The translations under genes were made by a program, and so were the position numbers. The notes under the pieces are model-generated. The model searched no databases. It worked only from the letters and a program-made list of their open reading frames with translations, and was not told the DNA's origin. This document shows positions 7,094 to 48,824 of a stretch of DNA of 64,000 nt, piece by piece (within the stretch, counting starts at the first letter, position 1; each line of letters begins with the position of its first letter). This stretch comes from Nanobdellati archaeon (GTDB lineage: Archaea; EX4484-52; GLR71). The stretch is from positions 1 to 64,000 of the forward strand of contig JAHYJR010000005.1 of NCBI GenBank assembly GCA_019429005.1, in the 5' to 3' direction.

Positions 7094-7204
7094 TGGCGCT
7101 GGGAGAGTGATTCGAACACTCGCGGGCCAAAGGCCCACAGGATTTCATGAAATATACTAAATATCTCTCAAGTCCTGCGCTCTACCAGGCTAAGCCACCC
7201 CAGC
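7094..7204 (-). tRNA. tRNA-Ser(TGA) with 23-nt intron at 37/38 (7144..7166), CCA encoded
   Basis: GCTGGGG acceptor, CAGGA-CTTGAG[intron]A-TCCTG, variable arm GGGCCTTTGGCCC, GTTCGAATC, ends G-CCA. Confidence 0.94.
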
Positions 7205-44507: not shown

Positions 44508-44629
44508 TGGACTCGATGGGATTTGAACCCACGACTTCTGGCTATCTAAGACCTGCAGGATATTTCTATCCTTATACGAAACGTGATCATATAAGACCAG
44601 CGCTCCAAACCAGCCTGAGCTACGAGTCC
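44508..44629 (-). tRNA. tRNA-Ile(TAT) with 46-nt intron at 37/38 (44544..44589)
   Basis: GGACTCG/CGAGTCC+A acceptor, CTGGT-CTTATA[intron]A-GCCAG, GGTTCAAATCC; BHB-like junction. Confidence 0.9.
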
Positions 44630-45682: not shown

Positions 45683-46627
45683 TTATTCAAGTATTTTTAT
45701 ATTATCTATTTTACCATCACCATCCATGTCAAGACCTGATACTACACATGTCCAATTATCTTCACCATTATATTTATCAAGTACCTGTTCTGTGTGTCTT
45801 GTGAGTGCAAGAACTGCAGCTTTTGTGCCATTGAAACGATTTCCTGCAATGAGGAGTATGCTTTTATCTTTATCCATTGGGTTTATTATCTTTGCAATAA
45901 TTCCTATTGAATCTTCATCATAATTCTTTTTAGTTTTTTCAGATATAAGTCCTCTATATGGAAATAAGTCTAGTTTGAATTTGACTGGTAAATAATTATT
46001 TATTTCCGAAACAATTATGTTTGTAAGTGGTCCACCTATAAGTATAAGGTTTGATGAATATCCATTTTCAGCTTTTATGTCTATATCAAGTTTTGTTGTG
46101 AATTCTTTTGGCATATTTACAAATTGTCCAAGAAAAATACCTATGTCTATCCCATAATGACCATCTCTTGCACGAACCTGATTCTGACCATGTGGATCTG
46201 GCGAACCTACAACAATATTTCCATTAAGATTTCCAGCATTCACAAAGGGGTATAAGAACATTTTTAGTTTATCAGATTGTGTTTTTAATGAGAAATCTGC
46301 AACTTTAACATCGCCATATGGTAATTCTAATGCAAAGGCACTGTTTGTTATAGTATAATATTTAGCGAGTACACCACCACGTTCTTGTTTAGATTTAATC
46401 TCAATAAGACCATTCAATTCAAGTTGTTTTATGTGGTAATAGACTTTTTGTTCATGAAGCCCTAGCATTTTTGCAATTTCTGCGGGGTATCTTGGTTTTT
46501 CAGCCAGAAGTTTTAGTATATTCCAACGTGATTCATTAAGTAGACCTTTAAGTTTTTCAGGTTCTGATTCTAACTTAACTTTTTTTGTAAAAAATTTACC
46601 ATTTATTTCTTTTATGAGGTGTGCCAT
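45683..46627 (-). CDS. ArsR-like wHTH regulator fused to a C-terminal LILIGGP-type domain
   Basis: RWNILKLL..P.YPAEIAK.LG..EQKVYYHIKQL; IVVGSPDPHG, NLILIGGP..N, DMDGDGKID. Confidence 0.8.
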   Translation of the reverse strand: MAHLIKEINGKFFTKKVKLESEPEKLKGLLNESRWNILKLLAEKPRYPAEIAKMLGLHEQKVYYHIKQLELNGLIEIKSKQERGGVLAKYYTITNSAFALELPYGDVKVADFSLKTQSDKLKMFLYPFVNAGNLNGNIVVGSPDPHGQNQVRARDGHYGIDIGIFLGQFVNMPKEFTTKLDIDIKAENGYSSNLILIGGPLTNIIVSEINNYLPVKFKLDLFPYRGLISEKTKKNYDEDSIGIIAKIINPMDKDKSILLIAGNRFNGTKAAVLALTRHTEQVLDKYNGEDNWTCVVSGLDMDGDGKIDNIKILE

Positions 46628-46867
46628 ATTATCACTTATTAATTTAATCTATATTAATTTTAATCAATTAGTTATGAATTATTTTATAATGGTATTATAA
46701 ATCTGTTAAACATTCTAGTTCTTAACTATTAGTAATGACATAACAATCTTTATATACTCTTATTAATTTTCAATCAAAATATCAAAAAATACTATAATTT
46801 CAGTTATAATATAGACATTCATTTTTGCAAAACCTATATAAGCAGGGAGATGTTTAATATATTTAGT

Positions 46868-46955
46868 GATTAGAGGGTTAAGATGCTTTGGTGCAGAAAC
46901 CTACAAGCTTATTTATAAGTTCTTGTTGATGCTTAAACCCTACCTAATCCAGGGT
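46868..46955 (+). ncRNA. candidate structured RNA upstream of glmS
   Basis: GATTAG/CTAATC, AGGGT/ACCCT and TAAG/CTTA outer stems plus inner ACAAG-CTTAT/ATAAG-CTTGT hairpin; starts ~26 nt after CCTATATAAG. Confidence 0.45.
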
Positions 46956-47051
46956 ATTAAAATAGTGATTATGTGCGTTTAGCTTTAGCTTTAAGGTTAT
47001 GATCTTTGTTTTCAAAATCCTTTATAAAAAATATATTAGATTGGTTATTTT

Positions 47052-48824
47052 ATGTGTGGTATTGTAGCGTACAAAGGCGATAAAGATGCATCTAAGGTTA
47101 TAAGGGATGGACTCAAGACTCTGGAATATAGAGGGTATGATTCGTGGGGTATTGCCACAACTGATGATTCTGTTATAGATGTTATAAAAAATATAGGAAA
47201 AGTCAGTGAGACTTATGATTCTAATTTAAAAATCTCAAATAATGGCTCAAATAAGGGTATAGGTCATACTCGGTGGGCAACTCATGGTGGTGTTACTAAA
47301 GAAAATGCTCATCCACATTTATCTCAAAATGGTAAGATTGCTGTTGTACATAACGGTATAATCGAAAATTTTCAAGAACAGAGAACCTTTTTAAAAAAAC
47401 AAAATTTTTCATTTTTATCTGATACAGATACAGAAACAATACCAAATACCATCGAATATCATATGGGTCGTGGTTATGATTTTGTTGAAGCTGCAAAACG
47501 TTCATTTGAGCATATGGATGGACAATATGCTGTAGTTGCTTTAAATCATGACGGTAAAATTGTTGCAATAAGACGTGAAGCACCACTTGTGCTTGGCATC
47601 GGGTTGAATAATGAGATTTTTATCGCGTCGGATGTGACTGCATTTCTTGAACATACTAAAAATGTGATATTTCTTGAAGAGAATGATATGGTAATTGTTG
47701 ATGGTTCTTTTGAGATTTTTAATCTCTATGAAAATTGTGTTGTAGAACGTCCAATCTCAAGAATTGATTGGGATAATGAAGCAGCAAAAAAAGGCGATTT
47801 TGATCATTTTTTTATGAAAGAAATTCTAGAACAAGCAGATGTTATAAATCGTATTGCAAATATTGAACAAAGTATAATAACAGACACTGTTTTTGATATT
47901 AAAGCTGCAAAAGGTGTATATATTGTCGCTTGTGGTACTGCAGCATATGCATGTATGTCGGGTTTATATTTGTTTTCAAAATTAGCAAAGATGCACATTA
48001 ATTTCTGTGTTGCATCTGAGTTTGAGCATTTCAAACATTTTCTAACTGAAGATAGTCTTATTATTGCAATATCGCAAAGTGGGGAGACTGCAGATACACT
48101 TTCAGCAATTCGTGCTGCAAAATCAAAAGGGTCAAAAGTCATATCTATAACAAATATGGTTGGTTCGTCTATTATGAGAGAATCTGATAAATCTATATTG
48201 CAGAAGGCGGGACCTGAGATCTGTGTGCTTTCAACAAAATCGTATACATCGCAGCTTGCAATAATTGCTCTTATAGTGTATGAGATGGATGGTCATTTTG
48301 ATGAAGGTATTGCTAGTTTAAGAGAACTCTCTAGATATATTTATTATCTTACATCAAAAAATTCAAGAGATTTTATTAAATCCTTATCAGAAAAGCTTAA
48401 AGATGTAGAGCATATTTACCTTCTTGGTCGAAATCTTCAGTATCCTACAGCTCTTGAAGCTGCTTTAAAGATTAAAGAAGTGTCATACATACATGCTGAA
48501 GCTTATGCTGGTGGCGAATTAAAGCATGGTAATATTGCACTTATTAGTGAAGGAACGCCTTGTATCATATTTACATCGGATCAGACCGAAAAAGCGATTT
48601 TAAGCAATGCTATGGAAGTCAAAGCTAGAGGCGCTTTTGTGATTGGTTTAGGTCCAAAAGATAATGAAATTTTTGATTTTTTCATAAAAGTACGTGATGC
48701 CGGCGATCTTAATCCCATTGTGCAGATAATTCCTATGCAAATACTTGCGTATCAGCTTGCACTTCTTAGGAATTGTGATCCTGATAAGCCACGAAATCTT
48801 GCAAAGAGCGTTACAGTTAAATAA
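47052..48824 (+). CDS. glmS: glutamine--fructose-6-phosphate aminotransferase
   Basis: MCGIV, LEYRGYDS, GHTRWATHG, SQSGETADT, ELKHG, PRNLAKSVTV. Confidence 0.98.
   Translation: MCGIVAYKGDKDASKVIRDGLKTLEYRGYDSWGIATTDDSVIDVIKNIGKVSETYDSNLKISNNGSNKGIGHTRWATHGGVTKENAHPHLSQNGKIAVVHNGIIENFQEQRTFLKKQNFSFLSDTDTETIPNTIEYHMGRGYDFVEAAKRSFEHMDGQYAVVALNHDGKIVAIRREAPLVLGIGLNNEIFIASDVTAFLEHTKNVIFLEENDMVIVDGSFEIFNLYENCVVERPISRIDWDNEAAKKGDFDHFFMKEILEQADVINRIANIEQSIITDTVFDIKAAKGVYIVACGTAAYACMSGLYLFSKLAKMHINFCVASEFEHFKHFLTEDSLIIAISQSGETADTLSAIRAAKSKGSKVISITNMVGSSIMRESDKSILQKAGPEICVLSTKSYTSQLAIIALIVYEMDGHFDEGIASLRELSRYIYYLTSKNSRDFIKSLSEKLKDVEHIYLLGRNLQYPTALEAALKIKEVSYIHAEAYAGGELKHGNIALISEGTPCIIFTSDQTEKAILSNAMEVKARGAFVIGLGPKDNEIFDFFIKVRDAGDLNPIVQIIPMQILAYQLALLRNCDPDKPRNLAKSVTVK

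Follow-up and report, generated by a model that had tools for sequence, protein, structure and literature searches.

We analysed a structured element upstream of the glmS gene (glutamine-fructose-6-phosphate aminotransferase) of a DPANN archaeon, whose genome, here called G000, spans 1.08 Mb at 29.7% G+C and is 93.6% complete. The element, about 92 nt long, lies on contig C13, which constitutes the window of 64,000 nucleotides analysed here, within a 424-nt spacer (46628-47051) that separates glmS from a divergently oriented regulator gene. An initial annotation had proposed it to be a switchable, riboswitch-like leader of glmS. With moderate confidence, we instead read the element as an additional, diverged member of a family of small hairpin RNA genes specific to this lineage, one that would be transcribed on its own and independently of glmS. 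Its paralogues adjoin unrelated genes of the same genome, the family covaries as a hairpin across related genomes, and the arrangement at glmS is confined to one of the 57 regulator-glmS spacers examined. The tempting but false lead of an archaeal glmS riboswitch is thereby removed, and in its place stands a covarying family of small-RNA genes that is not represented in Rfam 15.

The element and its paralogues

The features of the element, all of which lie on the forward strand, are listed here in the order in which they occur.

46864..46873 (+): 5' family motif TAGTGATTAG, following the pattern TAGTG[AG]TTAG; predicted transcription start at about 46865/46866
46866..46957 (+): the element (about 92 nt), putatively a paralogue within the hairpin small-RNA family that has diverged, delimited from paralogues, fold and sequence motifs
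46868..46882 (+): 5' strand of the basal helix P1, GATTAG-AGGGTT-AAG, in the minimum free energy (MFE) and centroid structures, with pair probabilities of 0.58-0.99 for the first 12 pairs
46890..46901 (+): P2 hairpin GGU-GCAGAA-ACC, counterpart of the GGA...UCC hairpin of the family, present in both the MFE and the centroid structure; a covarying helix of the family (helix 2)
46904..46925 (+): optional P3 hairpin CAAGCTTATTTATAAGTTCTTG within the variable 3' loop, read from the sequence
46932..46949 (+): 3' strand of P1, CTT-A-AACCCT-AC-CTAATC, with bulges A and AC, from fold and sequence
46941..46955 (+): 3' signature of the family TACCTAATCCAGGGT, identical to CACCTAATCCAGGGT at 14 of 15 positions, from a pattern search
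46963..46971 (+): second copy of the 9-mer TAGTGATTA, read from the sequence, 99 nt after the first copy at 46864-46872

The pattern TAGTG[AG]TTAG occurs three times in the whole genome, both strands considered, and CCTAATCCAGGG four times, with each TAGTG[AG]TTAG located 60-80 nt upstream of a CCTAATCCAGGG (C7:21391-21463, C11:44044-44124 and, at glmS, C13:46864-46954). This shared pairing of the two motifs at three loci argues that the glmS element is a paralogue of at least two other loci, and covariance models added two further members in G000, namely C7:1621-1734 and a short form at C10:47976-48023. Many dispersed copies had been named at the outset as a finding that would refute the proposal, and the five copies with conserved ends in the genome go part of the way towards it. 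In BLAST searches the 101-nt core found nothing beyond itself in the genome, and further matches came from a somewhat extended query searched across the order. Positions 46930-46964 are 82% identical to C7:21439-21476 within G000 (E 0.0013), and 46938-46957 (CCCTACCTAATCCAGGGTAT) recurs at 95-100% identity over 17-20 nt at one site in each of the genus-g3 genomes (8/8). Allowing at most one mismatch, CACCTAATCCAGGGT gave 17 matches spread over 10 of 42 genomes, G000 accounting for four, compared to a single match for the reversed control pattern.

The members of this family are hairpin RNAs of 48-110 nt, the lower end being represented by type A, which is 48 nt long and present once per genome. 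Their overall pattern can be written as GGUURGGUG...CACCUAAUCCAGG. P1 is a long basal helix of 9-18 bp with a nearly invariant foot, in which 5' GGUURGGUG faces 3' CACCUAAUC. It is followed by a short 5' junction that is A-rich and pyrimidine-rich and starts with AAA(G/C)UY, and by P2, a small GGA-loop-UCC hairpin with the variants GGU/ACC and GAGGA/UCCUC. The 3' junction is variable (14-35 nt), at times contains a further hairpin and ends in ...AUUGUnUGC; hairpins comparable to the optional P3 of the glmS copy are visible at the corresponding position of the C7:1621 copy and of a tandem g3 copy. After the 3' strand of P1 follows a single-stranded CC(A/G)GG tail, often succeeded by U-rich sequence. 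The P1 foot, the 5' junction and P2 are conserved among paralogues, whereas the 3' loop drifts even among orthologues.

Three covariance models were used. R1 is based on six short g3 sequences and R2 on four sequences of type C; R3 derives from A6, an alignment of 21 rows from which the glmS copy was left out. At E <= 0.01, R3 detected the family in 21 of the 42 genomes of the order, distributed over family f1 (8/9, plus G000), f4 (1/1) and f6 (11/16), and found no member in f2, f3, f5, f7 or f8; the phylum-level search set likewise comprised 42 genomes. Taken together, R1, R2 and R3 find 1-4 members per genome, and up to five family copies occur per 1-Mb genome. A 14-mer scan of genome contigs returned at least 119 matches, mostly in bacteria; 80 of these loci were searched with R1 and none fits the model (best 12.6 bits), a result that is uninformative on the spread of the family beyond the order.

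Of the cells in A6, 92.5% are paired, and changes on both sides are seen in 13 of its 23 pairs, counts that are inflated by the fitting of the alignment to the structure of the model and that derive from related, non-independent rows. None of 500 shuffles reached any of the measures, and the covariation score of 0.306 compares with at most 0.10 if partners are slid by 1-3 columns. RNAalifold, applied to orthologous sets, returned the same P1 and P2 for type C, and the P1 foot and P2 for type B. The 5' strand alternates between G and A only, facing invariant U residues of the 3' strand, and this alternation would preserve pairing on the forward strand only, since C·A mismatches would result on the other strand.

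The flanking genes of the members differ by type, with proteasome alpha and Band 7 in g3, a DHH+OB protein and GNAT at C7:21388, and Gins51 and GH15 in G012. Each type holds the same place in several g3 species, and the C7:1621 copy of G000 shares synteny with the type-B locus of g3. Of 23 members, 11 have a TATA-like hexamer whose start lies 31-39 nt ahead of the first G of P1; in the glmS, C11 and C10 copies it lies at -33 in all three. Type-B members have no TATA box and each directly follows another member in tandem. No target-site duplication was found around the conserved ends. We read the family as a set of stable small-RNA genes. As a side observation, head-to-tail pairs with no promoter between the two members occur at G006:C41:783-967 and G005:C202:2585-2779 (L321, L318), which suggests a processed dicistronic small-RNA precursor.

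Sequence and fold of the glmS copy

P1 of the glmS copy is composed of three stacked helices, GATTAG (46868-73) with CTAATC (46944-49), AGGGT(T) (46874-79) with (A)ACCCT (46936-41) and (T)AAG (46880-82) with CTT (46932-34). On re-reading the sequence, these helices were found as initially described, as were the first TATA box, the inner hairpins, GCAGAAAC at 46893-46900, the second AGGGT at 46951-55 and the second TATA box. The higher G+C content of the element could also be confirmed, at 37% compared to 19.6% in the rest of the spacer. The copy has kept the 5' motif, 14 of the 15 positions of the 3' signature, a P1 of 15 bp interrupted by two bulges, a hairpin resembling P2, the distance to the promoter and the UGAUGCUU motif ahead of the 3' strand of P1. 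The direct repeat of TAGTGATTA brackets the element, and so close a spacing by chance is unlikely because this 9-mer occurs just 15 times in the genome; the repeat could mark the junction of a duplication or the point where a second, degenerate tandem copy begins.

The comparison of folding with shuffled controls, which had been named as a possible refutation, gave a marginal result. The 83-nt core folds at -19.9 kcal/mol with a z-score of -2.19 (6 of 200 shuffles as good), its minus strand folds equally well (z -2.67), and the longer stretch 46866-46957 including the tail reaches only z -0.89 in a separate set of shuffles (40 of 200 as good). Folding of the element beyond chance is therefore marginal and depends on the chosen ends, and its reality rests on paralogues and relatives, not on folding energy.

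The proposed switch was based on the ability of ACCCU to pair with either of two AGGGU segments. If pairing of ACCCU (46937-41) with AGGGU (46951-55) is enforced, the energy amounts to -17.3 kcal/mol compared to -20.1 kcal/mol for the best fold, i.e. 2.8 kcal/mol less stable, with the hairpin alone contributing -5.3 kcal/mol and its pairs reaching an ensemble probability of about 0.005. The second AGGGU is the conserved tail of the family and thus a family-wide feature. Several members allow weak pairing between this tail and the C-rich portion of the 3' strand of P1, a pairing that could not be separated from the covariation of P1. Nothing in these results supports a switch for this element or the postulated control by mutually exclusive folds.

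Promoters and the relation to glmS

Two promoter-like sequences, each consisting of a B recognition element (BRE) and a TATA box, and a dyad-like motif are of importance for the relation between the element and glmS.

46792..46811 (unstranded): dyad-like motif CTATAATTTCAGTTATAATA, matching a motif upstream of the genus-g3 glmS promoter (nhmmer profile)
46826..46842 (+): BRE/TATA 1 TGCAAAACCTATATAAG, with the TATA box CCTATATAAG at 46833-46842; matches the glmS promoter region of relatives and points into the element
47012..47030 (+): BRE/TATA 2 TCAAAATCCTTTATAAAAA, with TATA at 47020-47030, likely the leaderless glmS promoter; hexamer at -32/-31 from the ATG

From the start of the TATA 1 hexamer to the first G of the basal helix the distance is 33 nt, as in the C11 and C10 paralogues. 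The initial description of a structured, RNA-like element served by a suitably spaced TATA box of its own is supported. We searched a profile of five g3 glmS-proximal spacers over the whole 1.08-Mb genome using nhmmer, and the top match was 46791-46837 (E 0.087, 10.6 bits; next E 1.3), a segment which comprises the dyad CTATAATTTCAGTTATAATA and TTTTGCAAAACCTA. Aligned pairwise to the G000 spacer, none of the related spacers is significant singly (e.g. L017, 98 of 300 shuffles as good), and only the genome-wide profile search is informative. By this profile match, TATA 1 belongs to promoter/operator sequence that matches the glmS promoter region of relatives. In those relatives, the distance from TATA box to ATG is about 40-75 nt, as judged from upstream sequences, compared to about 210 nt in G000, where the element lies between the two.

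The second TATA box TTTATAAAAA, which starts at 47020, shares 7 of 8 positions with the local consensus TTTTAAAA and is preceded by an A-rich, BRE-like stretch. TATA-like hexamers peak genome-wide at -31 to -27 from start codons (30, 46, 58, 49 and 32 occurrences), compared to about 8-24 at other positions between -40 and -19. In total, 167 of 573 genes with a spacer of at least 70 nt (~29%) have one of these hexamers between -33 and -27, a position characteristic of leaderless mRNAs, and in other genes Shine-Dalgarno (SD)-like tetramers peak at -14 to -9. G000 therefore displays two classes of gene starts, one with a TATA-like hexamer at -33 to -27 (leaderless) and one that is SD-like. Because TATA 2 sits at the leaderless distance of this genome, glmS is probably started from it as an independent leaderless mRNA; since the spacer is 80% A+T, the corresponding likelihood ratio is modest, at roughly 2. 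As its fallback, the initial annotation had named a stand-alone RNA, the glmS transcript beginning from the second TATA box, and it is this version that the evidence favours.

The link to glmS itself found no support. R3 returned 0 matches in 100 other glmS/regulator loci, and with G000 included, 57 regulator-glmS spacers from genomes and metagenome contigs could be measured. No family element is present in any of the 56 others. The tail motif ATCC[AG]GG is found in 2 of the 57 spacers, the other case (L069) lying in a purine-rich, coding-like insert that contains no hairpin member. The G000 spacer measures 424 nt compared to a median of 223 nt (quartiles 204-251) in the other 56, only 4 of which reach 424 nt or more. 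Since the element is missing from all of them and the spacer is this long, the element looks like a lineage-specific insertion just 3' of the promoter/operator sequence that G000 shares with its relatives.

We propose a model in which the TATA box at 46835-42 probably drives separate transcription of the element, with a start at about 46865. The glmS copy would have landed just 3' of the promoter/operator sequence that matches the glmS promoter region of relatives, and glmS would most likely start from the second TATA box (47020-30), giving a leaderless mRNA. Since glmS most likely has a leaderless start of its own, the element would be a neighbour of glmS and not its sensor. The locus would then illustrate the insertion of a small-RNA paralogue between a gene and its promoter, with the gene relying on a leaderless promoter thereafter. 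Genomes as reduced as G000 seldom keep useless RNA, and for this reason the family probably serves a core function. Given that P1, the 5' junction and P2 are kept and that drift among orthologues affects the 3' loop, we infer that its RNA would act as a protein-bound scaffold or ribonucleoprotein (RNP) and less probably as an antisense guide.

Alternative explanations

Several observations weigh against a stand-alone family member. The TATA 1 region resembles the glmS promoter of relatives and would fit a leader equally well, and a TATA-like hexamer at the expected distance accompanies only 11 of the 23 members. In folding energy the G000 copies show no significant advantage over shuffles (z -0.89 to -2.34), and to this comes the inflation of the pair counts in A6 mentioned above. 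The glmS copy has lost GUG/CAC of the conserved helix, with CACC changed to UACC, this part being replaced by the AC bulge and a new AGGGUU/AACCCU helix. R3 scores the copy at 12.9 bits (E 1.4) with a misaligned 5' arm, and R2 at 3.2 bits, both at noise level, and the copy may thus be functional, re-purposed or decaying. No oligo-T run lies directly 3' of the element (GGGTATTAAAATAG), and because a strong T-run is missing there, read-through into glmS is possible. The last point would suit a co-opted cis-acting leader, in which glmS is transcribed from the matching, probably regulator-controlled promoter at 46829-42 and carries the hairpin in a 5' untranslated region of about 187 nt, where it could act as a roadblock, a stabiliser, a processing site or a binding site for the protein partner of the family. 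The promoter with its dyad (46791-46842) matches the g3 glmS promoter region, as the best nhmmer match in the genome, and the element fills the enlarged distance between TATA box and ATG. A GGT at -12 from the glmS ATG is present as in relatives, within the range where SD-like motifs peak. TATA 2 at the leaderless distance speaks against such a leader, as do the other family members, which lead no particular gene, and the occurrence of the arrangement in 1 of 57 spacers, which is not that of a conserved regulatory design; we consider a leader unlikely, although deserving of serious thought. A more far-reaching version, in which the family is the RNA part of an undescribed DPANN RNP and the glmS copy was captured as a leader from a regulator-controlled promoter, coupling amino-sugar synthesis to the availability of the protein partner, appears improbable to us. 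If true, it would amount to protein-mediated control of archaeal glmS at the RNA level by exaptation of a housekeeping small RNA.

The noise-level scores, the loss of GUG/CAC, the confinement of the glmS-locus copy to G000 and the 9-nt repeat TAGTGATTA, 99 nt apart around the element and possibly a duplication junction, would all be accounted for if the copy were a decaying, functionless duplicate, i.e. a pseudo-sRNA or insertion scar that came to lie upstream of glmS by chance. We regard this as quite unlikely, given that 15 paired P1 positions with two bulges, a P2-like hairpin, the AUGCUU motif and the tail are all kept, that a TATA box sits at exactly the distance found in the paralogues and that the G+C content lies well above that of the surrounding spacer. 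Very little probability can be given to a DNA-level hairpin inserted into the spacer, resembling an attC site or a miniature inverted-repeat transposable element (MITE) and folding as single-stranded DNA for recombination. The conserved inverted ends around a variable centre of 17-70 nt, at 48-110 nt overall, do resemble integron attC sites as generally described, and the element is an insertion relative to relatives, but the copies are dispersed without cassette arrays, types A, B and C occupy fixed loci in several g3 species with one syntenic in G000, TATA boxes and U-rich tails flank many members, and no target-site duplication surrounds the conserved ends. The 93.6%-complete genome moreover gave no match to a tyrosine recombinase (Phage_integrase, PF00589), and the order of the GTTRRRY-like and RYYYAAC-like ends, as read from the sequence, is reversed relative to the commonly stated attC consensus. 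Hardly credible at all is a riboswitch or ribozyme that responds to glucosamine-6-phosphate (GlcN6P) or UDP-GlcNAc and controls glmS via two exclusive folds. Its position upstream of glmS on the same strand and the capacity of ACCCU to pair with either AGGGU had made it attractive, but no Rfam glmS model matches, paralogues adjoin unrelated genes, the other 56 spacers lack the element, the AGGGU tail is family-wide and the alternative fold is barely populated. In addition, control by a protein is already available through the conserved, divergent DNA-binding regulator. We therefore retain the stand-alone family member as the preferred reading.

Searches against known RNAs and rejected identities

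A cmscan of the whole window against Rfam 15 at gathering scores returned only two intron-bearing tRNAs, both elsewhere, and no glmS ribozyme. Between 46600 and 47100, with E up to 10, the only match was to the box C/D model sR24 (12.9 bits, E 4.4; gathering score 36), in line with the earlier statements that the bacterial glmS ribozyme core is lacking and that the element belongs to no described family. Seven loci with relatives of the element gave no Rfam match at the hairpins either, and no description of the hairpin family turned up in the literature as surveyed at listing level.

Other identities were considered and rejected. For an unusual, split or intron-bearing tRNA, ARAGORN gave no match in the window, the Rfam tRNA model misses the element, and its sequence allows neither a D-arm nor a T-arm. 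Elsewhere in the window, two tRNA genes carry long insertions, at 44508-44629 (-, 122 nt) and 7097-7204 (-, 108 nt), both matched by Rfam and missed by ARAGORN on the window; only about 31 tRNAs lie above the Rfam cut-off genome-wide, several of them intron-bearing, and some G000 tRNAs may be non-canonical or unassembled. Signal recognition particle (SRP) RNA and RNase P RNA are both found elsewhere in the genome, the SRP RNA candidate at G000:C8:6859-7127 being a diverged one with 83.9 bits, under the gathering score of 96.5 of the archaeal SRP model in Rfam. A weak C-x-G-x3-Y-K resemblance in a 38-codon frame had prompted the idea of a tandem duplication of the glmS promoter and the 5' end of the gene. 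Local alignment of 46786-46990 to 46991-47200 scored 21 compared to 19.4 +/- 2.7 for shuffled sequences, 278 of 1000 being as good, and this duplication was rejected. A small protein was likewise rejected, as the 38-aa GTG frame of the glmS copy is not kept: read from the shared GTG, four paralogues give 38, 9, 14 and 20 codons, and no conserved reading frame exists in the family.

Neighbouring genes and spacer

The genes on either side of the spacer and a palindrome within it are as follows.

45683..46627 (-): winged-helix regulator (ArsR/PadR/TrmB-like helix-turn-helix, HTH) with an S-layer-like C-terminal domain; Pfam HTH_20 9.8e-10, HTH_5, S_layer_C 4.3e-9
46684..46700 (unstranded): palindrome TTATAATGGTATTATAA, candidate operator or promoter of the regulator gene, inside stretches BLAST-matched beside glmS in other genera
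47052..48824 (+): glmS (glutamine-fructose-6-phosphate aminotransferase); Pfam SIS 2.7e-43, GATase_6, GATase_7

A phosphoglucosamine-mutase-like gene comes next after glmS. In tblastn searches the regulator adjoins glmS in 24 of 30 genome loci, the G000 locus counted, and the pair is conserved across the order and also found in many metagenome contigs; a metagenome scan with the regulator protein returned 552 relatives, the best at 59% identity. The only stretches of the spacer that are BLAST-matched beside glmS in other genera (G039, G038, G036 and G001) lie within 46653-46710, and the palindrome TTATAATGGTATTATAA, near the start of the regulator gene, is conserved across genera. The conserved arrangement of glmS and a divergent winged-helix regulator with palindromes makes protein-based control of amino-sugar synthesis likely in these archaea. 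The closest proteins to G000 glmS, at 70-71% identity, are L010 and L011 (G016 and G021, family f8), compared to only 48-54% identity within its own family f1, which hints at gene transfer or uneven rates.

Comparison with known systems

Like the element, the glmS ribozyme of Gram-positive bacteria (RF00234) is a structured sense-strand RNA upstream of glmS. It differs in its conserved, double-pseudoknotted core, and the element finds no match to it in Rfam even at E up to 10. The hallmark of riboswitches and ribozymes, a gene association kept across relatives, is contradicted here by 0 of 100 other loci and by paralogues at unrelated loci. In Enterobacteria, according to two reports, GlmY and GlmZ are paralogous, stand-alone hairpin small RNAs (sRNAs) for which glmS is the regulated gene (PMC7073468, PMC9841335). 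Compared by description only, they share with the element the format of paralogous stand-alone hairpin sRNAs in a glmS setting. Unlike GlmY/GlmZ, G000 has at least five paralogues, and the link to glmS is one of position alone, in one genome.

Imperfect conserved inverted ends around a centre of variable length are a trait that the family has in common with integron attC sites and with hairpin repeats of the MITE or repetitive extragenic palindromic (REP) kind, and the glmS copy is likewise an insertion. Integron attC sites form cassette arrays, are linked to an integrase and have the order R''(RYYYAAC)...R'(GTTRRRY). The family differs from these elements in that it is not arranged in arrays, keeps its positions between species, has promoter-like boxes and lives in a genome where no integrase was found.

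The archaeal box C/D and H/ACA sRNAs are, like the family, dispersed small genes, several per genome, with own promoters, conserved terminal elements and a variable interior. In H/ACA guides the ACA box lies about 14-15 nt from the pocket, and box C/D guides carry C and D boxes with a kink-turn (K-turn). Judged by eye against these familiar consensus features, the family has no C/D boxes (no CUGA/RUGAUGA pairs), no K-turn and no ACA after the basal stem. Its distance from internal loop to 3' tail varies widely, because P1 measures 9-18 bp and the 3' junction 14-35 nt, and its variable loop is not conserved among orthologues, both in contrast to guide RNAs.

The Y RNAs are bound by Ro60/Rsr, and a TROVE-domain protein (PF05731) gave 0 matches in the 93.6%-complete genome; we know of no sequence similarity between Y RNAs and the hairpin family. 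In their general design they resemble the family, being a handful of 50-110-nt paralogues with a conserved basal stem formed by the ends of the RNA, pyrimidine-rich variable internal loops and U-rich 3' ends.

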